Both the position numbers and the translations under genes were made by a program. Source: an uncultured virus (IMG/VR IMGVR_UViG_3300017913_002196) (Duplodnaviria > Heunggongvirae > Uroviricota > Caudoviricetes). Taken from it: 20,000 nt of DNA. The stretch lies in the IMG/VR virus record IMGVR_UViG_3300017913_002196; one strand, 5' to 3'. This document shows, one piece after another, positions 8,394 to 20,000 of the stretch (position 1 is the first letter of the stretch; every line of letters begins with the position of its first letter). The notes below the pieces were generated by a model. The model did no database searches. It saw nothing but the letters and a program-made list of their open reading frames with translations, and was not told the origin of the DNA.

Positions 8394-9878
8394 TTAACCC
8401 CAGAGAATAGAGTCCATCTCAAGAGTTGAGTTCTTCAACTCCTCTTCAAGCTCTTGTTTCTCTGCATTCGCTTCATCCCAAAGTCCTTGACCATCGAGTT
8501 GTACACCACCAGGAAGTTCAGTATTTTGATATTTCTTTAAATTAGAACCCCACTGTTGCTTTGCTAACACCGTAGCATATCTTTTTAACCATGTGTTTTT
8601 ATAAACCTCACCTGTTAGTTCTGGATCTGCTTGTTCATATACTTCACATAAAAGATAAAAATCTCCTCTACTTTTACCTGTCTTAATTCTATTCCAATCT
8701 ACGTCTAAATATAATCTACTTCTATATTGATTAAATCTTATTGCAGGAGCTGTGTTTAATAAAAAGTCAATATGTTCTACATTTAACTTTTGTGTGTAGT
8801 AGTTTGATAAACCAGTACCTACAGCATTACCATAGAACATATCAAAGTTATTAAGGAAGTACTGATATTCAAAATTGTACATACCTGCATGAGTGAAAGA
8901 ATCTACTTTAGCAACCTTAGTAACAGATACAATACTATCTGGAACTTTAATACCAATCTGTCCTGTAGATGTAACTGTAATGTTTTCATCTTCTAATACT
9001 TTTAATTCTTCTTTAAAGTATTTGCTAAAGCCATTATGAGCTGTTCGTTTACCAAATCTTCTAGGTCTTGTAGATGTAGGGCTAAAACGTTGACTTCTTA
9101 GAACATCTCTTTGTGTATATCTAGTAGCTCTTTCTATAATTACCAATTTAAATCTTTGATCTGAATCTGTATCTAAATCACTATCAAACAATCTAAAAGT
9201 AGTACCATCGGAATCTTGTACGTATGCACCAACTTCGTCACTATCATATCTATTAGAGTAATCTAAATCTGAGTCAAGTAGTCTATAAGTAACACCGTCA
9301 GAGTCTAAAATATATGCTCCGCTATTATCAGAATCATATACTTGGTAATAATCTAAATCAGAATCAATAGCTCTAAATTCAGAACCATCAGAATCTAAAA
9401 TATGAGAACCGTATTGTTCAGAGTCATAAAATTTAGCTGTTTCAGAAATGTCTAAATCACTATCAAATACTCTTATATTACCATCTGAATCTCTTACAAA
9501 GGCACCATTAGTATCTGAATCATAAAAGATATTAGTTGACTCTGAATCAGTCTTAATAAAGATTCTATTTCCTCTAGTATTATCAACTTTAACCATAACT
9601 CTATCACCAATGCGATAGTCGTTTAGCTTATCTGAGTCAAATTTTTCTGCTGTAAGATCTTGGTGAATTCTATTATTACGGTTAAGTAAATTTGAATCTA
9701 CTTTAATTGTTCTCCAAGATCTAGTTACACCATCATAATGATAGTTGTAAAAAAATTGCACGGCTTCGTCAATACAATCTTCCAATTGTACATCAGCGAT
9801 TTCTACGTTAATGACTGGCGCGCCTAGTCTACGTAAAACCCAATCTGCTAACTCTTGTTTAGTCGCTGGTAATGGCAT
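8394..9878 (-). CDS. gp13: Neck protein (T4 gp13 family) with a large DSD-repeat insertion
   Basis: N-terminus P.TKQEL.DWVLRRLGAPVINVEI...QLEDCIDEAVQFF..YHYDG and C-terminus IRFNQ..RLYLD.DW...WLKRYAT.LAKQQWGSNLKKY...LPGGVQLDG are gp13 hallmarks. Confidence 0.95.
   Translation of the reverse strand: MPLPATKQELADWVLRRLGAPVINVEIADVQLEDCIDEAVQFFYNYHYDGVTRSWRTIKVDSNLLNRNNRIHQDLTAEKFDSDKLNDYRIGDRVMVKVDNTRGNRIFIKTDSESTNIFYDSDTNGAFVRDSDGNIRVFDSDLDISETAKFYDSEQYGSHILDSDGSEFRAIDSDLDYYQVYDSDNSGAYILDSDGVTYRLLDSDLDYSNRYDSDEVGAYVQDSDGTTFRLFDSDLDTDSDQRFKLVIIERATRYTQRDVLRSQRFSPTSTRPRRFGKRTAHNGFSKYFKEELKVLEDENITVTSTGQIGIKVPDSIVSVTKVAKVDSFTHAGMYNFEYQYFLNNFDMFYGNAVGTGLSNYYTQKLNVEHIDFLLNTAPAIRFNQYRSRLYLDVDWNRIKTGKSRGDFYLLCEVYEQADPELTGEVYKNTWLKRYATVLAKQQWGSNLKKYQNTELPGGVQLDGQGLWDEANAEKQELEEELKNSTLEMDSILWG
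9159..9527 (-). repeat. Four ~30-aa tandem protein repeats inside gp13
   Basis: FYDSDTNGAFVRDSDGNIRVFDSDLD / FYDSEQYGSHILDSDGSEFRAIDSDLD / VYDSDNSGAYILDSDGVTYRLLDSDLD / RYDSDEVGAYVQDSDGTTFRLFDSDLD. Confidence 0.92.
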
Positions 9879-11457
9879 CGTGCTCTACTATTTCCGTTTC
9901 AGTATTTATTGTAAGAACATCTTTCTCTCCTGATAGAGTAACATCTCTAACTTGTACACTTTCAAAACCAAAAGGTTCTGGTGGCATATCAGGATCTTTA
10001 ATTTGTTCTTTTTCCATCTCGTTCATAATCTCTGTATCAATACGTGCAATATCTTCTTCTGTATGACCAAGAATAACTTTGCGTACATATTCGATAGAGA
10101 AATATTTACCTACATATTCATTAGCATCTCTAAGTACTGCTAACTGATCGTTAAGTAATTCTACCTGCTTAAGTTTATCAAAGTGCATATCTTTGAGATA
10201 GTCATAACTGATATACTGTCTCATTTCTTCGAACTCAGCTTGAGTACAAACACCTTTAAGTACTAACTGAACTCTTAACACTTCGTTAAACAATTCAGCA
10301 AACTGTTTTCTAATACGTTTAATAAACTTACTAAATTTTATTTCATCTCTTGAGATGTCTGATGCTCTTCCGAGTTGAAAGTTGTTGTCTTGGTTGATTC
10401 TTGAGATTGGGACATTGAGCGATTGATATAATTTCTCCTTGAAGTAATTGACATCGTCAAGATCTCCAAGATTTTGTCCTCCAGGGAGTGTACTAATCTC
10501 CGTACCTCTTGACCCTTCTCTTCTAGGGAGCCAGAAGTCCTCCAACAACGACATAAATTTTCTCGAATCACGAATCTCTCCTGTATTTGGATTGTAGTCA
10601 ATTTTATTTCTATAACGATTCATCATATCTCTAAGATAAGTCTCAGCTTTAATCTTAGGTAATGAACCCACATCAACATAAAAAATTCTTCTTTCAGGTG
10701 CTCTAGCAATACGATAAACAATAAGAGCATCTTCCATAGAACGAAGATTGTTAAAAGGTTTAATTGCTTTGTCTAAGTAACCAACAATACTACCTTTATT
10801 TCTATCTACCAATCCTGATGGACAAAAGATAACAGAGTCTTTGGATAACTTTACACCATTATTACCACCATCAGGAGAATATTCAAAGTACTCATCTACT
10901 TTAACTAATACAGGAACACCTGTTCTAGGGTCTTTATCATATTTAGGTTTAACATGTCTTTTAATCTTAAGAGCGTCGATAGGTCTTAATTCTTTAATAC
11001 CATTCTTAAGATTTTCTTGATCTACAATAACTTGGTAGTGTAGTCTACTATCTACATACCATTGTCTAAAGATGTCATATGAACGTCTTTGAAACTTAAG
11101 AAGATGAAGAGTTGTCTTAAACTCTTCTCTAATTATTTCTTTAATTCTATCATCAATGTTAAGAAGATCTAATCTAATAGATACTGAAGGTCTTTCATGT
11201 TCTGTAGTGAAAGCTTCGTTTACAATATCATCAATAGCAGCATCAGCTTCTGGATAGAAAGAAATGTCTCTATACTGAGCAATTAATGCATGTTCGCTTC
11301 TTGCTTTACTATATTGTTCGTAAGTATAACCAATCCTACCACCAACAGGTAAGTCAGTACCATCATCCATTGGTTTAGGAACGGGTGATGGTACTGGTTG
11401 ATCATTCTTGTTTTGAACTAATTCGAACCCGAATAGTTCTTCTTTCTGTAAAGCCAT
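9859..11457 (-). CDS. gp20: Portal vertex protein (T4 gp20 family)
   Basis: LFGF N-terminus, PEADAAIDDIVNEA, YLDKAIKPFNNLRSMEDALIVYRIARAPERRIFYVDVG.LPK.KAE.YL, LEDFWLPRREG.RGTEISTLPGGQNLG, I.RDE.KF.KF. SD GAGGAG. Confidence 0.99.
   Translation of the reverse strand: MALQKEELFGFELVQNKNDQPVPSPVPKPMDDGTDLPVGGRIGYTYEQYSKARSEHALIAQYRDISFYPEADAAIDDIVNEAFTTEHERPSVSIRLDLLNIDDRIKEIIREEFKTTLHLLKFQRRSYDIFRQWYVDSRLHYQVIVDQENLKNGIKELRPIDALKIKRHVKPKYDKDPRTGVPVLVKVDEYFEYSPDGGNNGVKLSKDSVIFCPSGLVDRNKGSIVGYLDKAIKPFNNLRSMEDALIVYRIARAPERRIFYVDVGSLPKIKAETYLRDMMNRYRNKIDYNPNTGEIRDSRKFMSLLEDFWLPRREGSRGTEISTLPGGQNLGDLDDVNYFKEKLYQSLNVPISRINQDNNFQLGRASDISRDEIKFSKFIKRIRKQFAELFNEVLRVQLVLKGVCTQAEFEEMRQYISYDYLKDMHFDKLKQVELLNDQLAVLRDANEYVGKYFSIEYVRKVILGHTEEDIARIDTEIMNEMEKEQIKDPDMPPEPFGFESVQVRDVTLSGEKDVLTINTETEIVEHDAITSD
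9903..9910 (-). promoter_or_regulatory. Possible late promoter AATAAATA for gp13, embedded in the portal 3' end
   Basis: tatttatt at 9903-9910, 24 nt upstream of the gp13 ATG. Could arise by chance in AT-rich DNA. Confidence 0.45.
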
Positions 11458-11484: not shown

Positions 11485-12111
11485 TTAGCCAGTTACTGGC
11501 TGTTCAGCGACATCAGCTGTAGTTCTAGCTGAAGTAGGAACTGAAGTTGTATTTGATTCCCACCACTGATATGCAAAAGTAACTGCAAACTCTTCGATTG
11601 TATCTGCACTGTCGTAAGAAACATCAATTGTATCTACAACAGTAGGCCACGCACCTACAATAACATATCTCTTAATCACTGCACCTGTTCTACTTAGTTG
11701 TTCAATTTCTAAGTTAGCAACATATGAGTCAAATGAAGCGGCATCAACACCTCTTCCAGATACGTTTGTAGCTGCGCCGTTAATCGCATCTTGCCATCTT
11801 TCGAAAGCATTTCTTACAGCAAAGTTATTGTCATTAACTACACTTACTGTCCAAGCATCGTAAACAGTATCACCTGATACTTTTAATTGTCTACCTCTAA
11901 ATGGTACAATAATTTCACCAATAGATCTAGCTGGCATTGCTGCAGTTTTAATCATAAAAGAGCTCAATGCTTCTGTCTCACCGGAACCGAAAGCTGTATT
12001 AGCTAGACCTTCAATGTTCCCGTTTGGCCAGTTACAGTTTACTCTAAATAGATTGGCTCTTGCACCGCCGCCAGTTAAAGCTGTTTTAAAATCGTCAATA
12101 CGTACTGTCAT
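11485..12111 (-). CDS. gp19: Tail tube protein (T4 gp19 family)
   Basis: GGGARANLFRV, VPFRGRQLKVSGD..YDAWTVSVVND.NF.VRNAFERW, IEEF.VTFAYQWWE. Confidence 0.97.
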   Translation of the reverse strand: MTVRIDDFKTALTGGGARANLFRVNCNWPNGNIEGLANTAFGSGETEALSSFMIKTAAMPARSIGEIIVPFRGRQLKVSGDTVYDAWTVSVVNDNNFAVRNAFERWQDAINGAATNVSGRGVDAASFDSYVANLEIEQLSRTGAVIKRYVIVGAWPTVVDTIDVSYDSADTIEEFAVTFAYQWWESNTTSVPTSARTTADVAEQPVTG

Positions 12112-12112
12112 C

Positions 12113-14218
12113 TTAAGCTCCTGCTACCTCACTAAATGATACTCCAGTTCTCACAGCAACAAAGTTCAGTGTAATGAAGTTAATTGAGCGAGCTGGCTTC
12201 AGGTAGATATCAGCTACGAATTGATTAGAGTCGATAACCTGACCTGTGTTATTAGATGTATCACAAACAACCTTAAAGTCAGTTAAACCTCTTCTTGCTT
12301 GTACTTCAGCAAGAAATGGCTCAATAGCATTAACGAATGTTCTTCTTGTCAAGTCATCGTTAAACTCGAACAATTGGAACTTAGCAGCTGTTGCAATTGC
12401 TTTTTCAAGAACAATGAACAATCTACGTACGTTAATTCTATCAAACGCAGAAGGCCTAGACAATGCTGTCTTATCACCGTATAACAGAGTACCCTGACCT
12501 CTAAAGGTTACGATAGGGTTAATTCTGTTAGGATAGAGCTGATCTCTATCTGTTTGATTTGGATTGAATGATAATTTAACAACGTTCTGGATAAACCCTC
12601 TGTTTAAACCAGCAGGTGAATACCAAGCTTCGTTAGTAAATTCTGTTCTTGCTGTTAAACCTGCTGTATCAGGGTTAATTGGCATCCAGAAATACTCGTC
12701 GTTATATCTATCATACTGTCTCTTCCAGCTTGAATCGAATACAGCATATGAAGTAGAGTTAATGTCTGAGAAATAGTCAATAACTTTAGTTGCTGTTGGA
12801 TTGTTTACAGCTGCAGAATAGCTAGGTGATAAGAACGCTATAGCATCTTTCCTTTTCTCTGCAATTGTTATAACATGTTTTTGTACTGTTTTCGATCTTT
12901 CACCAGTAATAAGTAGATTTACATCAATAACCTGATCATCGTTTAATAGGTCATAAGCAGTTGTATAGTTACCATCAGTAATAGATGAACCATCATTACC
13001 ACCACCTAATGTATATCTTCTTAAACCAGTTAAGCTTACATTTGTTAACAAATACTTAAATCTATTTGATGTAGCTAAGTTTGTTAATGTATCACCAATT
13101 GAACTTAAAGCAGTACCACCTGAACCATCAGAGTCAATAGTAGATGATTGTGCTTTGGTTTCTTCATTAAGAAGATAAACCCAATTAGAAGCATCATTAA
13201 CTGCATCTACATAGAAGTTACCTGCACCGTCTGCTGTTTTACTATTTTTAGCTTTAGATAAGTATGCATATGTTTCTAATGTTTCATTTGCTGTACCGGT
13301 AATCTTTGTATCTGTAGTATAGATAACAACATGAACTTCATCGAATAATGTGTTCGTGTAATTACCCGCCCATGTTGATGTACCTGGTCTTGTATCGAAC
13401 AAATCAGCGCCTGTAGTGTTACCATATAGCTTATAATTCTTAAAGTCAGAATCGTTTATAGAAGCATCCATGATATAGATACCAATACTATTTCCTAACT
13501 CACCAGGGAATCTAGCATATACTGAACCGTTAACAAGTGTTGATTTTTCTACTTCAAAGTCATCAAAGTTATTAATTTGAGCTGAAGTAATTCTAGTTGT
13601 TGTACTTGCACTTGTATTTGAGAAGAATGTAAATGTTACGCCGTTTACTGTCTGTGCAGCTGGTAAGGTAATACCTGTTGCAGAATATTTTAATGTGGGG
13701 TCTACAATACCTGCAATACCATCTGAGTCAGCAGTAACTGATGAGAAACCATCACTATCCATTGCTTCTCTCATTGCATCAAGTACTGAATCTAATGTTA
13801 ATGCATCAGCACTAAATGAAACTTCTGTTGTTCCGTCTACCTTTACATCAAATCCTGATGCAGAAGGTGTACCTGATAATACAACTGAAATTGTTGAAGA
13901 AGAACCAACAACCGGCTCTGATGCACTATTTCTTGCACCATCAGAGATTGCTCTAACTACTTGTAATTGATTTGCATAACCAAGGAAGTTAGCTGCTGCG
14001 TACCAATCATCTCTTGTACTTGAGGCCGCGTTTGTTGAAACTTTTGGGTATCCAAATTTAGCGAGAAGATCTTTCTCTGAAGATACCGTTGTTACTTCTA
14101 ACGCTGGACCCCATTCGAAAATACCAGCAAAGCCACCAATAGACGTTGCTACTGCTGGAATAATGTTGGTAAGATCTTTCTCTACGATTTGTACACCTGG
14201 ACTAACTAAAAATGCCAT
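12113..14218 (-). CDS. gp18: Tail sheath protein (T4 gp18 family)
   Basis: SPGVQIVEKDLT, AGIFEWGP, ARFPGELGNSI, WYSPAGLNRG, RDQLY...INPI, LYGDKTAL..PSAFDRINVRRLF, FEFND..TR, YLKPARSINFITLNFVAVRTGVSF.E. SD CAGGAG. Confidence 0.99.
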   Translation of the reverse strand: MAFLVSPGVQIVEKDLTNIIPAVATSIGGFAGIFEWGPALEVTTVSSEKDLLAKFGYPKVSTNAASSTRDDWYAAANFLGYANQLQVVRAISDGARNSASEPVVGSSSTISVVLSGTPSASGFDVKVDGTTEVSFSADALTLDSVLDAMREAMDSDGFSSVTADSDGIAGIVDPTLKYSATGITLPAAQTVNGVTFTFFSNTSASTTTRITSAQINNFDDFEVEKSTLVNGSVYARFPGELGNSIGIYIMDASINDSDFKNYKLYGNTTGADLFDTRPGTSTWAGNYTNTLFDEVHVVIYTTDTKITGTANETLETYAYLSKAKNSKTADGAGNFYVDAVNDASNWVYLLNEETKAQSSTIDSDGSGGTALSSIGDTLTNLATSNRFKYLLTNVSLTGLRRYTLGGGNDGSSITDGNYTTAYDLLNDDQVIDVNLLITGERSKTVQKHVITIAEKRKDAIAFLSPSYSAAVNNPTATKVIDYFSDINSTSYAVFDSSWKRQYDRYNDEYFWMPINPDTAGLTARTEFTNEAWYSPAGLNRGFIQNVVKLSFNPNQTDRDQLYPNRINPIVTFRGQGTLLYGDKTALSRPSAFDRINVRRLFIVLEKAIATAAKFQLFEFNDDLTRRTFVNAIEPFLAEVQARRGLTDFKVVCDTSNNTGQVIDSNQFVADIYLKPARSINFITLNFVAVRTGVSFSEVAGA

Positions 14219-14258: not shown

Positions 14259-15581
14259 CTAAACCCTTCTGATGATGAAGCTACCAGCATCAAAGGTCTC
14301 TATAACTTCCGCATTAAATGTCATATCTGTAAAGTCATCTTTAAATCTAAAATGTATTGAATCATCAGATGCTAATCCTGAATCTAAATCAATATACATC
14401 TTATCAATATATTGCATTGCAAGTGAGTTGCTGTTTACTGAATATATAATAAATCTTATTACGTTTTCAAATGCTGTGCCTTCAGCAACAACAAACTCTT
14501 GACTTACAATTTCTCCGCCACCTAAACCACTAATAGCCCACTTAAATGTAGTTTCTTCTGATAAAGTAGCACCTGTCTGTACATAATCTACTGCAATAAT
14601 ATCTGAATCAGATGTAACAACTGCAGCAGGAGCGTTAATAGTATTTGATGAACCTACTCCTAATAATTTTTCTAGTGCTGCAATTCTTGTTAAATGTGAA
14701 TCAGTTTCTTTTGTAATTGAAGTGTGTAGTGAATCACTATCTAAGTCAGATCCACCTATTCTGTTTAGATTAATAGTTCTAACAATTCTATCTGAATCAA
14801 AGTGATCTGAATCTTCTAGTCTAGTTAATCTAGTTCTAATAATTGTAATTCTGTCTCTTGTATAACCTTCTTCTGAATCAAAGTCATCTTCAACTACATT
14901 TAATCTTCCGCTAATATGTTGTAGTTTCTCTTCATCAGAATCTAGTCTTCTGTAAATATCTGTTAAATCAAGATTTTCAGAATCAATATCAGATCTCAAA
15001 GCTCTAACTTCTAATGATTCTGAATCCATATCAGATCTAAGTTTTGCTATATCTTCTTCGTTCTGAGTAACTTTTTCTAATAATCTTCCATCACTATCTA
15101 AAGTAGATACAATATTTCTAATTCTTTCTGCATCTGAATCTGCATTACGTTTAAGATGCTCAATAGCAATCATATCACTATCAAGACGTCTAATAATATC
15201 TAACAATTCTGTCTGATCAGAATCAAGTAAGGTTTGTAATTCGTCTATTCTCTTTTGTAAATGTTGAATGACAGTAGAGTCGGAATCTCTATCTGACATT
15301 AATTGATCTACATCATTTCTAAGAGTTGAAACTACTGCTAAATCAGAATCAGTAAAGAGACTATTCTCTCTAACCATACTTCTAATTTGATCAGAATCAA
15401 ATCCTGAACCTCCACTTCCAGCAGAATGTTCATTAATAAGATCAACAATGTAATCCGAGTCTATATTGACTCGAAATACACCTTCGTAATCACTATTCTC
15501 ATTATAATCAACAATGATTCCAGGGCCGGCTTCGACCCTGACCATCATGGGATAAAAATCTGAATCAAAATTGTAAGCCAT
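14259..15581 (-). CDS. DSD-repeat coiled-coil protein (440 aa), candidate whisker/fibritin-like virion fibre
   Basis: Central heptad pattern punctuated by DSD/DSE, with a globular-looking C-terminus. Preceded by TATAAATA and located in the structural module. The fibre role is inferred. Confidence 0.7.
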   Translation of the reverse strand: MAYNFDSDFYPMMVRVEAGPGIIVDYNENSDYEGVFRVNIDSDYIVDLINEHSAGSGGSGFDSDQIRSMVRENSLFTDSDLAVVSTLRNDVDQLMSDRDSDSTVIQHLQKRIDELQTLLDSDQTELLDIIRRLDSDMIAIEHLKRNADSDAERIRNIVSTLDSDGRLLEKVTQNEEDIAKLRSDMDSESLEVRALRSDIDSENLDLTDIYRRLDSDEEKLQHISGRLNVVEDDFDSEEGYTRDRITIIRTRLTRLEDSDHFDSDRIVRTINLNRIGGSDLDSDSLHTSITKETDSHLTRIAALEKLLGVGSSNTINAPAAVVTSDSDIIAVDYVQTGATLSEETTFKWAISGLGGGEIVSQEFVVAEGTAFENVIRFIIYSVNSNSLAMQYIDKMYIDLDSGLASDDSIHFRFKDDFTDMTFNAEVIETFDAGSFIIRRV

Positions 15582-15602
15582 ATATACTACTCAACTTTAA
15601 TA

Positions 15603-15610
15603 TATTTATA
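15603..15610 (-). promoter_or_regulatory. Canonical T4 late promoter TATAAATA
   Basis: tatttata on + strand, 21 nt upstream of the ATG at 15581. Confidence 0.8.
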
Positions 15611-15621
15611 TAAAGTTGAGA

Positions 15622-18159
15622 CTAGAGTTCATACTCTGCAGTTGGTGGTGTAAAGTTAGCAGTGTATCTTGCAAGACCTCTAGTAAATCTTAAATCTTGT
15701 ATGTATCCATGGAATTGATTGTTAGATAAATTATATCCGTTAGCACCTATGACAGGCGCGGCAACTCCATGATTATAACCATTTGTATCTGAATACGTAC
15801 CATCACTTACACCATCAGTATACAAAGTTGTTGTTCCATTATTTCTAACTAATGCAATATGATACCAAGTATCTACAGATAAGACACTACCGGTAATTCT
15901 ATTAGCTTGCTGAGCATATAATTTTATTCCAGCGCTAGAGTCATGAGTAATAGTTATATATGCACCGTTAGTGTTTCTAGGTCTAGTATCAAATATTGTC
16001 ATACTATGATCAACTGCATTTAAGCGCATCCAAAATTCTATAGTAAAGTCATCTATTCCTCCTACACCAACTATACCTTTATTGTTATTAGTATTAGTTT
16101 CATTTTCCCCAATAATATAATCACCATTTCCATCAAAATAAATTGCAGAAGACGTTGTAAATTTTCTTTCTGTAGTTGAAGCTATAACATTACCAACAGT
16201 TCTAAAAGTGATACTACCGGTAGCATCATAGATATTAGTATCACTTTTATTGTTCATAATAAAAACAGTATTAGTATCAAAAGTAACAGGTTCTGTAGGA
16301 ACATCAATATAATCTCCTACTGTGTAAAGAGCTGTACCTTTAGTAATCTTTACATCAGCTATATAACCGTCAACATAGTTATTAACACCTCTATTAACTC
16401 CTATTTGTATATTGTCATCTGTAGAATAGTTTACTGTATCTGCAATATCACTTACCGCTCTAATACCATTGACCCACATTTGTGACACTGATGATTTTCT
16501 CTGTACTACAACATGATGCCATGCATCTCTTACGCCTAGTCCAGTAGTAGAATCTTGATTTCCTGTCCCTCTAGCATATCTAAATTTATCACTAGAGTAA
16601 TAAATTTGCCACGTATTTCCTGATGAACCTGCATCAGTGGAGCTTATAAAAGGATCGTTGGCAGCACTAGGATTTGTTTCTGGTCTCCACCATAATTCAA
16701 CAGTAAAGTCTCCAGTACCAAAATTGCCTATACCTGTGCCTGCAGCTGTTTTTACATAGTCTCCGTCACCATCCATGTATAAAGAACCACCGTTAGTGCC
16801 CGGTATCCAAGGTTCATAATTATATGGCCCAAACGGGTATGTATTAGGAAAACTATTATTTGCTAGGGCAATTCTATTTGTTGATTTATCAATGTGACAT
16901 GGTGCACCACATCCTAAAAATTGAGTATTAGTTATTGCTGTTAATGGTTCTGTTGGAGGGGTAAATGCACCAGTATATACAGCTGAGCCTATGACTACTC
17001 TTAAATCTCGTATGTAGCCTGTGTAGTATGCACCGTTACCTCCACCATTTCTAAAACCATAACCAATTCTCAATCTCGGGTTAGCATCAGTATAACCACC
17101 ACTAATAGCGAGACTTGATTGCTCGACCCCATCTACATATGATTTTAATGTACCTCCATTTCTTACAATGGCAATGTGATACCATGTTCTATTACTTACG
17201 GATGATACTAAAGTTTCCGCTGATTCTAAATTCCAAGTTGAATTATCTGATGATGAATAGAAAGTAAGGTTACCGCTAGCAACGTAAATTAGTAACGGAC
17301 CTCTTAATACATCAGATGGAGCAAGTTCCAGTACAGTGCTTGTATTATACCAGTTTGTAGAGTATACCCAACACTCAACTGTCCAATCATCGCTTCCAAA
17401 CTTTAAGTTAGCATTATTATCTGTTTCTAATCTATCATCTGTACCATCAAACCATGTACTATAACCACCTGAACGATATGGTGATAAGGATGAAGATTGC
17501 GTTGAGCCGGCTCTTGTAAATAGTATCCCATCTGAATTTTCAGAATCTAGATAGACTAGGTCACCGTTGGCTATATTATTACCTGTAGCTCTCATTAACA
17601 TAGTAGTGTAAGCAGAATTATCTATTATATTACTAAATGATAATGTGAATGATGAAACCGCATCTGTTTGATTAACACCATCTGAAGCTCTAAATGTAAC
17701 ACTACCCGTATTGGATGCTGATGGCACTCCGTTTTCACTGTCAGGTGTTACAGTAAAAATTCTACCATTATCAGAATCTTTTGTTATTGTTGCAAAAGTG
17801 TCAAAATCACTATCTGTAATAGCGGTGAATGTTATTGGCAATCCTTCAGAATCAACTGCATTAATAGTAATAGTTGTAGCAGTACCATCATTATTAAGTT
17901 CATATGAACCTGCAGGTGAAGTTGTGTAATAAGGTGAAGTGTTAATAAGAGCAATATTATACCAACCAGAACCTGACCATAGGTATAATCTATTAGTTGC
18001 TGTTACGTAGCCTTGGTCTCCTTGGGTGTTACCGCTTACAGGTAGATCATCTGTACTTGACACCACAATCATTTCTGTTAGATCAGCAGTCACGTAATTT
18101 TTATTGATTGTATTATTATCGTTAATACTTCTAGATAAAGCTCTGGATTTACTTGTCAT
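15622..18159 (-). CDS. Multi-LamG (concanavalin A-like) fibre / putative receptor-binding protein (845 aa)
   Basis: Three modules of the form (F/M)DG.GDY...FT(V/I)E.W...W(Y/H)HIA.VR.....YVDG...GYI.DLR...YT..FTPPT. N-terminal DLP.SGN..GD...V....LY.W.G.GW motif followed by an Ig-like segment. Confidence 0.88.
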   Translation of the reverse strand: MTSKSRALSRSINDNNTINKNYVTADLTEMIVVSSTDDLPVSGNTQGDQGYVTATNRLYLWSGSGWYNIALINTSPYYTTSPAGSYELNNDGTATTITINAVDSEGLPITFTAITDSDFDTFATITKDSDNGRIFTVTPDSENGVPSASNTGSVTFRASDGVNQTDAVSSFTLSFSNIIDNSAYTTMLMRATGNNIANGDLVYLDSENSDGILFTRAGSTQSSSLSPYRSGGYSTWFDGTDDRLETDNNANLKFGSDDWTVECWVYSTNWYNTSTVLELAPSDVLRGPLLIYVASGNLTFYSSSDNSTWNLESAETLVSSVSNRTWYHIAIVRNGGTLKSYVDGVEQSSLAISGGYTDANPRLRIGYGFRNGGGNGAYYTGYIRDLRVVIGSAVYTGAFTPPTEPLTAITNTQFLGCGAPCHIDKSTNRIALANNSFPNTYPFGPYNYEPWIPGTNGGSLYMDGDGDYVKTAAGTGIGNFGTGDFTVELWWRPETNPSAANDPFISSTDAGSSGNTWQIYYSSDKFRYARGTGNQDSTTGLGVRDAWHHVVVQRKSSVSQMWVNGIRAVSDIADTVNYSTDDNIQIGVNRGVNNYVDGYIADVKITKGTALYTVGDYIDVPTEPVTFDTNTVFIMNNKSDTNIYDATGSITFRTVGNVIASTTERKFTTSSAIYFDGNGDYIIGENETNTNNNKGIVGVGGIDDFTIEFWMRLNAVDHSMTIFDTRPRNTNGAYITITHDSSAGIKLYAQQANRITGSVLSVDTWYHIALVRNNGTTTLYTDGVSDGTYSDTNGYNHGVAAPVIGANGYNLSNNQFHGYIQDLRFTRGLARYTANFTPPTAEYEL

Positions 18160-20000
18160 AGTTCGAACTCTGCTGCTGGTGGTGTAAAGTTTTCAGTGTA
18201 TCTTGCCAATCCATTAGTAATCATGAAATCTTGTATGTATCCATTTAAATCATATATATATGATCCACTTTTACCTAAAGCACCAATATTTAAGTCGTCA
18301 GATGGAAACTGTACTGCAGACGAAGAGGTACCCATAGATGTTCCTGTGCCATTTATATAAGAACTAAAATCAGTTCCGTTTCTTACTAAAGCAATATGAT
18401 TCCACTGATCGTCAATTAAAGTAGTAGTTGTGTTTGTTACATTATTAAGTATATCCCAAGAACTACCGTTGCTTGTTGCTGCAGCAACAAGCTGTCTTGA
18501 TGCATTTACATATACCGCCAACCATTTGAATTCACTACCAGTATCATTTCTTTTTGCAAATAGTCCATTATTAGCAACATTAGCACTCCAATCATCACTC
18601 CAAACCCACATTTCAATAGTAAAATCATTAGTTGCTAAATCCATTGCTTGCGAAGATGGAACATCTATTCTATCTCCAGTGCCATCAAAGTAAACCGCTG
18701 ATGATGTAGTAAACTTTCTTTGTGTAGTAGATGATGTAGTATTTGCTTGTAATATAAATGTATTTGCTCCGGATGCATCATAAACATTTACATCTGATTT
18801 GTTTTGCATTAACACTTCTGTATTTGTAATATGACTTAATGGTGCAGTTGGTGGAGTAAAATTCGCTGTATATACAACACTTCCTGGAGTGTATCTAAAG
18901 TCTGCAACGTAAGCTTTTAAATCATAATTATTAGTATTGTATGCACCTATACGGACTCTATTAGACGCTGCAGGTGTATATGTATGCGAACCTGCAAGTC
19001 TTCCATTTATATACCCTTTGGTTGTTGTACTGCTTCTTGTGACCGCAACATGATTCCAAGTATTAAGAGTAAGAGCTTCCTCTGTAAATGAAGCTTGTGC
19101 TTGCGCACCGTTATCGACTCTTATATTTGATCCTGATGCACCTCCGTACCAAATGTTTGTACCTTGTGTTGAACCACTATTAAAGTGCACTATTGTTTGT
19201 TGATCTGTAAGATTATCCCATGGTCTTACCCAAAATTCTACAGTATAATTTCCAACGACAGTAGTTAAATTACTAGCAGAAACAATGCTTGTGTTATCGC
19301 CATCAAAGTAAACAGAACCAATATCACTATCTGCCCATGTAGAGAAATCATATGGGCCAAATGGATATGTAGCTGGTGTATTAGTAACCGTAATACCAAA
19401 CCCATTAGTAGAACCGTCTATAAAGTTTGGAGCATGACACACTAAAAGCTTGGTATTTGCTACTGGTACTAATGCTTCTGTTGGAGGTGTGAAGGCCGCG
19501 GTATATACTGCAGTTCCTACTGTATATCTTAAATCTCTAATATATCCATTATAGTAACGACCATAATATCCATCTCTACCAATTGTGTATGCACCGTTAA
19601 TGTCAGCACAAGTTGCTGATGAAGTACCAGTTCCTCTACTTACTCCATCAACATAGATAGTAAATGCACTACTATTTCTAACAAGAGCAATATGATGCCA
19701 TTGACCATCACAAACATCAACTCCAGAAGTATTGACTAAAGGAGTTGATGTGCTATAATTTGCAAAGTAAAATGCAACGTCACCTGCAGAAGCACTTGCT
19801 CTGTTGAGCATCAATGTCCACATTCCAGAAGCAAAAGAATTAGGAGTTCTTGCTATTAAAGTATCATATCTATCTTCGTTTGTGGTATTAATCCACATTT
19901 CAATGGTGAAATTACTGTTACCTAATTCAAATGCTGAGTTATCACCAACAGAGAGATAACCCGAGCCATCAAAGTAAGTACTGTATCCTCCAGCTCGATA
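18156..20000 (-). CDS. Multi-LamG fibre protein, paralogue of the downstream gene (5' end outside the window)
   Basis: Frame is open to base 20000 (YRAGGYSTYFDGSGYLSVGDNSAFELGNSNFTIEMW...). Three LamG modules and the same C-terminus type (GLARYTENFTPPAAEFEL). ATGA overlap with the next gene. Confidence 0.88.
   Translation of the reverse strand, partial: YRAGGYSTYFDGSGYLSVGDNSAFELGNSNFTIEMWINTTNEDRYDTLIARTPNSFASGMWTLMLNRASASAGDVAFYFANYSTSTPLVNTSGVDVCDGQWHHIALVRNSSAFTIYVDGVSRGTGTSSATCADINGAYTIGRDGYYGRYYNGYIRDLRYTVGTAVYTAAFTPPTEALVPVANTKLLVCHAPNFIDGSTNGFGITVTNTPATYPFGPYDFSTWADSDIGSVYFDGDNTSIVSASNLTTVVGNYTVEFWVRPWDNLTDQQTIVHFNSGSTQGTNIWYGGASGSNIRVDNGAQAQASFTEEALTLNTWNHVAVTRSSTTTKGYINGRLAGSHTYTPAASNRVRIGAYNTNNYDLKAYVADFRYTPGSVVYTANFTPPTAPLSHITNTEVLMQNKSDVNVYDASGANTFILQANTTSSTTQRKFTTSSAVYFDGTGDRIDVPSSQAMDLATNDFTIEMWVWSDDWSANVANNGLFAKRNDTGSEFKWLAVYVNASRQLVAAATSNGSSWDILNNVTNTTTTLIDDQWNHIALVRNGTDFSSYINGTGTSMGTSSSAVQFPSDDLNIGALGKSGSYIYDLNGYIQDFMITNGLARYTENFTPPAAEFEL

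Follow-up and report, generated by a model that had tools for sequence, protein, structure and literature searches.

A stretch of 20,000 nucleotides from an uncultured virus of the Caudoviricetes (IMG/VR record IMGVR_UViG_3300017913_002196; the whole stretch is referred to as the window) was analysed with respect to a minus-strand gene whose product, termed here the fibre protein, repeatedly carries the tripeptide Asp-Ser-Asp/Glu (DS[DE]). The protein is predicted to consist of an N-terminal anchor, a coiled-coil stalk and a C-terminal knob, and the motif recurs along the stalk in a fixed heptad register; judging from the models and the conservation patterns described below, the fibre architecture and the b-c-d register of the motif can both be assigned with good confidence. 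The gene and the parts of its product are as follows.

14259..15581, minus strand: fibre gene (P0001), an open reading frame (ORF) of 440 amino acids (aa) with 17 DS[DE] motifs
15411..15581, minus strand: N-terminal anchor domain, about residues 1-57, strongly conserved, with DS[DE] at residues 6 and 41
14811..15356, minus strand: predicted coiled-coil stalk, residues 76-257, with putative hydrophobic(a)-Asp(b)-Ser(c)-Asp/Glu(d) heptads at residues 78, 99, 120, 134, 148, 162, 186, 200, 214 and 235
15060..15071, minus strand: predicted 3-residue stammer, where the interface steps from residue 171 to residue 174
14658..14810, minus strand: joint region (residues 258-295) followed by a neck helix (about residues 296-308), both from AlphaFold2 (AF2) secondary structure
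14262..14609, minus strand: predicted C-terminal alpha/beta knob, residues 325-440, about 115 aa, opened by the DSD at residue 325

The repeat-bearing segment at 14871-15350 (minus strand) encodes residues 78-237 of the fibre protein. Across the whole chain, DS[DE] starts at residues 6, 41, 62, 78, 99, 120, 134, 148, 162, 186, 200, 214, 235, 257, 262, 281 and 325; in 20,000 composition-preserving shuffles the mean number of such motifs was 1.31 and the maximum 7, and the 14 occurrences of DSD compare with 0.86 expected from composition. From residue 78 onward the spacings are 21, 21, 14, 14, 14, 24, 14, 14 and 21 residues, exactly as listed in an earlier note on this DNA, and eight of these nine are multiples of 7 (P = 1.4e-6 for at least eight of nine at random phase). 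The peptide quoted in the same note (LLDSD-QTELLDIIRRL-DSD-MIAIEHLKRNA-DSD-AERIRNIVSTL-DSD) was likewise found in the translation. SDS occurs only three times, the motifs being isolated tripeptides 14-24 residues apart.

In the AF2 monomer model (predicted local distance difference test, pLDDT, 62), helices span residues 78-163, 166-199, 206-257 and 282-306 and are followed by an alpha/beta domain; the anchor has low pLDDT, and each DSD of the joint region, at residues 257, 262 and 281, begins a short predicted helix. The hydrophobic residues of the stalk showed a 3.5-residue periodicity with a power of 4.40, compared with 0.20 ± 0.20 (maximum 1.40) in 2,000 shuffles. An ESMFold2 model of residues 76-310, in which three copies were imposed, scored 0.71 (0.71, 0.72 and 0.71 in the individual runs) versus 0.00 for the best of three controls, with at least 70% contact agreement between the runs and pLDDT values of 78-79; in the calibration of the tool, 20 of 30 proteins solved as same-chain pairs attained this mark, compared with 1 of 23 that had been solved as single chains. 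The contacts of the model join like-numbered residues, e.g. 209:209 and 213:213, and the modelled bundle is therefore parallel and in register. The description of the protein as a coiled coil in the earlier note agrees with the predicted helical, heptad-periodic stalk and with this bundle, and the modelling suggests that the stalk is probably a trimer.

The register of the motif was determined from the aligned sequences of 19 homologues, from the model interface and from distant relatives. When the alignment was laid out in rows of seven, with no model involved, conserved hydrophobic columns appeared at a and d of every non-motif heptad, and the third motif residue fell in the second hydrophobic column. 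In the three-copy model, the interface is formed by residues 84, 87, 91, 94, 98, 101, 105 ... 133, 136, 140, 143, 147, 150 ... 213, 216 ... 234 and 237; it includes the third motif residues 101, 122, 136, 150, 164, 188, 202, 216 and 237 and excludes the Ser and the first Asp. The hydrophobic columns and the interface together place the motif at a-b-c-d, i.e. as hydrophobic(a)-Asp(b)-Ser(c)-Asp/Glu(d), with the Ser predicted to be exposed and the second acid predicted to lie in a core d layer. A polar residue, Asp or Glu at d, thereby recurs at a core heptad position of the predicted trimeric coiled coil. The lone spacing of 24 residues (162 to 186) is explained by a 3-residue stammer, which restores the same register: the interface runs 164, 167-168, 171, 174-175, 178, and the hydrophobic columns shift by 3 past residue 171.

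The same frame was found beyond the close family. Around 1,056 motifs from 70 distant relatives, the frequency of Leu, Ile, Val, Met or Phe (LIVMF) was 0.54, 0.63, 0.55, 0.56, 0.50 and 0.50 at offsets -8, -5, -1, +6, +9 and +13 and low at -4, +3 and +10 (0.20, 0.24 and 0.19), with a background of 0.27. The 1,013 spacings between motifs in these relatives peaked at 14 (172 cases), 21 (129), 18 (108), 25 (39) and 35 (36), i.e. at 7n and 7n+4, the pattern that a motif held at one heptad position would show if stutters intervene. An e-f-g register, which would give an outward-facing stripe, was ruled out by the hydrophobic columns, the model interface and the LIVMF offsets. Thus, of the outward-facing Ser stripe proposed earlier, one half stood, in that all stalk Ser residues share one heptad position, c, predicted to be exposed; the other half did not, the motif lying at b-c-d rather than e-f-g with its last acid in the core.

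Conservation was followed in the 19 aligned members and in 42 close homologues. The motifs at residues 41, 78, 99, 134, 148, 162, 214, 257, 281 and 325 are invariant in the former. In the close homologues the Ser is retained in 42 of 42 sequences at 15 of the 17 sites and is never replaced by Thr, the third residue alternates between Asp and Glu at five sites, and the motif at site 200 is frequently lost. At site 120, Asp-Ser is changed to Asn-Gly in 8 of the 42, and the acid at d is retained in all of them. Mean identity in the stalk was 0.90 for motif residues, 0.75 for a, 0.80 for d and 0.68 for the other positions.

A word-indexed search returned 56 homologues, 43 of which are 424-441 aa long and 52-83% identical and come from marine metagenomes; an exhaustive search gave 66 cluster representatives at E ≤ 1e-3, and all homologues derive from metagenomes. 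The fibre protein belongs to no Pfam family (sub-threshold generic coiled-coil matches only) and to no PHROG family, and tblastn searches of 50,697 phage records with the fibre protein and with a stalkless homologue gave no match. For a DSD-rich relative of 1,507 aa, only the non-DSD C-terminal part matched cultured phages (Caulobacter, Brevundimonas; tblastn). A Pfam search of nine distant relatives found no domain except a DHH domain on one apparently fused record, and the ESM Atlas returned unnamed viral clusters only (best score 0.84, below its trust level).

The two ends of the protein are shared by relatives of very different length. Some twenty cluster representatives, 175-244 aa in length, match the fibre protein only over its first 55 and last 140 residues, and in three of three IMG/VR loci such stalkless homologues are encoded directly upstream of the tail sheath gene gp18, the position that the fibre gene itself occupies in 13 of 13 loci of its clade. 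By sequence and position, the fibre protein appears to be the positional orthologue of this roughly 200-aa stalkless protein of other marine T4-like phages, so that the stalk would be a length-variable insert. The same anchor and knob also bracket proteins of 1,133 and 1,732 aa, which points to fixed ends around a highly variable middle. Within the anchor, which begins relatives of 193-1732 aa, residues M1-S7, Y10, P11 and D41-Y44 are invariant in the 19 sequences. The neck helix (R-I-A-A-L-E-K-L-L-G-V) is kept in the stalkless homologues, with R, E, L and G nearly invariant. A second module, G-F-DSD-Q-[IV]-V-x-I-I-x-E-N, is present once in the fibre protein (residues 60-73); in distant relatives (P0059, P0060, P0056), which are giant fibres rich in DSD, as many as six consecutive copies stand at the N-terminus.

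The last 151 residues, modelled alone with 19 stalkless relatives, gave an AF2 pLDDT of 83. In VIA-align comparisons the knob resembled the outer domain of the cyanophage A-1(L) sheath (Z 10.6, root-mean-square deviation 2.2, 91 residues aligned) and the Mu sheath (Z 10.1), and was less similar to podophage nozzle domains (Z 8.8-8.9) and to T4 gp11 (Z 6.9). Foldseek retrieved nothing at E ≤ 1e-3, either with the C-terminal domain against the PDB and BFVD, where sheath proteins ranked at the top of the weak matches, or with the whole model against the PDB.

The window represents a T4-type late structural module with a G+C content of 35.7%. On the minus strand the order is two LamG genes, fibre gene, gp18, gp19, gp20, a gp13-like gene, two small ORFs, and the genes for the gp21 protease, gp22 scaffold and gp23 capsid protein; PhoH is encoded on the plus strand. 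The features around the fibre gene are listed below.

18156-20000 and 15622-18159, minus strand: two LamG-repeat proteins, preceding the fibre gene
15590..15620, minus strand: perfect 10-bp inverted repeat flanking the TATAAATA box and beginning 2 nt past the stop codon of the upstream LamG gene, read from the sequence
15603-15610, minus strand: TATAAATA, a T4 late-promoter-like box 22 nt 5' of the ATG of the fibre gene
12113-14218, minus strand: gp18 tail sheath (Pfam PF17482, PF04984, PF22671)
11485-12111, minus strand: gp19 tube
9859-11457, minus strand: gp20 portal
8394..9878, minus strand: gp13-like neck protein (P0058, 494 aa; phrog_211, head-tail adaptor Ad2, E 1.6e-35)

Against cultured phages, the identity of the capsid and portal proteins reaches no more than about 48-51%, with T4-like Synechococcus and Prochlorococcus phages as top matches, and the virus is therefore assigned to an uncultured marine lineage. 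That the fibre gene precedes gp18, as stated in the earlier note, was borne out, gp18 being the next gene downstream. The promoter claimed there fared less uniformly. The TATAAATA box does lie ahead of the ATG, and at -29 to -36 three of nine clade loci have exactly TATAAATA and the remaining six have AATAAATA; because one or the other stands at the same place in all nine, a late-type promoter ahead of the fibre gene is plausible. The box as such is not enriched, with two copies in the window versus 3.0 expected, both intergenic and correctly oriented. Most of it is contained in the 11-nt loop of the inverted repeat at 15590-15620, a possible RNA hairpin or terminator that would share sequence with the late promoter.

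Each of the two LamG-repeat proteins contains three LamG/concanavalin-like domains, and both are likely receptor-binding fibre or baseplate proteins. In related loci this region 5' of the fibre gene is swapped for other genes, including other DSD-rich fibres, e.g. one of 954 aa with 23 DS[DE] (L010, 2248-5112). Two further irregularities were seen in related loci: in the stalkless-clade locus L014 (1181-4408) the sheath gene consists of two ORFs (729 and 101 aa) followed by an unmatched 246-aa ORF before gp19, which could reflect a frameshift or an inserted element, and in L010 (14093-15703) the portal gene is present as two ORFs (132 and 312 aa) about 270 nt apart, which could be due to an intron, an insertion or an assembly fault.

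The motif is not confined to the fibre protein, and an excess of DS[DE] was found in outer virion proteins of this marine T4-like phage (17 in the fibre protein, 15 in the gp13-like protein). The gp13-like protein carries 13 DSD and 2 DSE in a repeat insert at about residues 111-246 (window about 9141-9548, minus strand), built of units of about 31 aa with three motifs each (Y-DSD-xxGAxxx-DSD-GxxxRxx-DSD-LDxxxx). About four units are present in the window, one in L004, L006, L007 and L010, and none in L013; the insert appears from its sequence to be a recent expansion of a DSD-bearing, apparently non-helical neck module. The gp18 sheath has four DSD versus 0.38 expected, all within about residues 150-370 and outside the Pfam sheath core domains (30-89 and 440-687), and related sheaths keep two to four. 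DS[DE] was found in none of gp19, gp20, gp21 and gp23, in the window or in 13 related loci.

An origin of the motif at the DNA level, in which the in-frame GAYTCN of Asp-Ser would create GANTC sites that are themselves selected, has a practically negligible probability. The window does contain 93 GANTC sites versus 70.5 expected, a number reached in 1 of 200 shuffles. However, three of the 17 motif Ser codons of the fibre gene are AGT, the ratio of TCN to AGY codons in the ORFs of the window is 34:10 for motif Ser and 322:109 for other Ser (Fisher p = 0.86), and at sites 121, 135 and 163 the Ser codon is TCN in some homologues and AGY in others. Codon-family switching and equal codon usage effectively refute selection for GANTC sites, whose excess is thus a consequence of the protein motif; it is the protein rather than the DNA that is under selection.

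The earlier note had further suggested that the protein may be an analogue of fibritin (wac) docked on the DSD-rich gp13; such an analogue, attached by its N-terminus as a collar or whisker protein, we consider quite improbable. The fibre protein does share the general plan of T4 fibritin, likewise a phage fibre encoded by a late structural gene: an attachment part at the N-terminus, a discontinuous parallel coiled-coil rod and a domain at the C-terminus, all of them predicted here, and its gene lies in a late structural module with a late-type promoter box. There is, however, no detectable sequence relation: a profile of 19 homologues searched against all PDB chains did not retrieve fibritin and gave no match below E 1e-3, and neither Pfam nor PHROG places the protein in a family. 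The C-terminal domain is an alpha/beta knob of 115 aa resembling sheath outer domains (Z 10.6 as above) instead of a short foldon, and the gene adjoins gp18, being located upstream of it and not between gp12 and gp13. To our knowledge, an Asp-Ser-Asp core motif is not a feature of fibritins. Docking on the DSD-rich part of gp13 conflicts with the variation of the gp13 insert between 0 and about 4 units among phages that all keep the fibre protein; since it is kept where the insert has 0 or 1 unit, the fibre cannot depend on the insert. In addition, the surfaces of the fibre and gp13 proteins are both strongly acidic.

As the best overall explanation we favour, tentatively, a parallel coiled-coil virion fibre with acidic core layers. 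The fibre would be homo-oligomeric, most likely trimeric, and would comprise an anchor, a stalk and a sheath-outer-domain-like knob of about 55, 180 and 115 aa, respectively. With the hydrophobic-Asp-Ser-Asp/Glu motif at a-b-c-d of every second or third heptad, the Ser residues would form a single exposed line at c and the second acid of each chain would point into a core d layer. Such acidic layers may bind a cation or water at the centre of the bundle, with Asp(b) and Ser(c) capping each layer from the outside, and the irregular 14/21 spacing would lock the register between the chains. Seawater is rich in Ca2+ and Mg2+. This structural core-layer reading is favoured because of the fixed register, the d acid kept at site 120 and the precedent of polar layers. 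Furthermore, a motif serving exposure only could sit at d-e-f-g without a core acid, which is not what the family shows.

The precedent comes from trimeric coiled coils with polar cores: in gp26, the tail needle of P22, an NxxQD motif binds Ca2+, layers with Asn at d (N@d) bind chloride, and in autotransporter stalks d is the usual polar-layer site, with 45% of d positions polar (PMC13580157). The fibre protein is like these proteins, P22 gp26 and the N@d autotransporters, in having a recurring polar core residue in a predicted trimeric extracellular fibre (PMC13580157, as far as described there), and unlike them in that its core residue is Asp or Glu and always follows Asp-Ser at b-c. Profile matches in the PDB to EibD (E 0.31) and gp26 (E 0.49) were not significant. 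By analogy with these systems, an ion-holding or register-setting role of the motif is conceivable though rather less than probable, and the stronger proposal that D/E@d constitutes a new coiled-coil core motif, one that would line up divalent cations in a column down the middle of marine phage fibres, is doubtful.

Several observations weigh against acidic core layers. Literature searches on acidic or calcium-binding trimeric cores yielded no example of an Asp/Glu d layer, only layers based on Asn or Gln, and three buried carboxylates per layer are costly. An ion layer made by the d residue gives no obvious reason for the strict Ser, which gives way to Thr, Ala or Gly only where the whole motif is lost. 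The same tripeptide is found in non-helical contexts (the gp13-like insert, the sheath and the LamG proteins) and at predicted helix starts (residues 41, 62, 78, 262 and 281, AF2), and therefore not every motif can be accounted for by a function tied to coiled coils. As to the stalk model, the number of three copies was chosen beforehand, and coiled coils may score well in such models merely by resembling solved ones.

Two other readings of the motif address some of these points, and they and the core layers are not fully exclusive. Asp-Ser-Asp/Glu may be a modification tag, a sequon for a phage or host glycosyl-, phospho- or other transferase, with the coil displaying a stripe of modified Ser; we regard this as a strong rival to the core layers, albeit less than probable. 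It would account for the enrichment of the motif across unrelated folds of outer virion proteins and its absence from gp19, gp20, gp21 and gp23, for a motif Ser that is invariant and never Thr or Ala, and for the solvent exposure of Ser at c predicted by the three-copy model. A biochemical parallel is provided by staphylococcal adhesins, the SD-repeat Ser of which is O-GlcNAcylated by SdgB/SdgA; as described in the available text, these also present Asp-flanked Ser on an extracellular fibrous protein, but in long uninterrupted SD runs, unlike the isolated tripeptides 14-21 residues apart in a helical heptad frame of the fibre protein (PMC3794999). Long uninterrupted Ser-Asp repeats, which define SdgB/SdgA substrates, are absent from the fibre protein. 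SdgA/SdgB were also the sole match in a search of the phage literature for the DSD motif, which found no paper on the motif in phages; for pelagimyophages, a variable host-recognition cluster with fibres and glycosyltransferases is described, and the motif is not mentioned in the available part of that source (PMC7029224). A tag of this kind fits poorly with the register, as a hydrophobic-D-S-D sequon could equally use d-e-f-g without a core acid and the family uses a-b-c-d almost exclusively, and with site 120, where Asp-Ser can be lost and all 42 sequences retain the core acid. Moreover, the third motif residue would be hidden from an enzyme once the coil has folded, and a Pfam scan of the 17 ORFs of the 20-kb window revealed no candidate modifying enzyme.

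The motif might instead mark helix starts or joints, acting as an N-capping box with a hydrophobic staple, so that the stalk would be composed of 14- and 21-residue helical segments with joints or folding nuclei, and the same motif would make tight turns in beta-rich proteins. In AF2 the motifs at 41, 62, 78, 262 and 281 stand exactly at helix N-termini and that at 325 just ahead of a strand, and model breaks come after the DSD-G at 164-165 and after the motif at 200-205. In helix capping, a hydrophobic staple joins residues N' and N4, and offsets -1 and +4 of the motif are indeed hydrophobic (0.55 and 0.48). Even so, the helix runs uninterrupted through seven of the ten stalk motifs in both models, the heptad phase is continuous across the motifs, and capping would allow Ser or Asp to be replaced by Thr, Asn or Gly, which is not observed. 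We rate this reading as improbable, and retain the acidic core layers as the preferred one.

What is new in this analysis is the heptad register with a core acid, the spacings that follow stutter and stammer rules, and the architecture of fixed ends and a variable stalk in the slot upstream of gp18. In an uncultured, abundant clade of marine T4-like phages, Asp-Ser-Asp/Glu occurs in outer virion proteins far above chance, and the periodic frame of the fibre protein lets the geometry of the motif be read from sequence, revealing a core acid that a simple surface-tag model does not predict. The family shows how a tail-associated protein changes its stalk length from 0 to more than 1,000 residues between fixed ends. 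If the D/E@d cation column were true, fibre assembly, stiffness or triggering would depend on the Ca2+ or Mg2+ of seawater, and the irregular 14/21 spacing would be a register code against mispairing among the many such fibres in one cell. Should the acidic layers bind ions, they would represent a new natural design rule for coiled coils and would tie the mechanics of a phage fibre to the chemistry of seawater.

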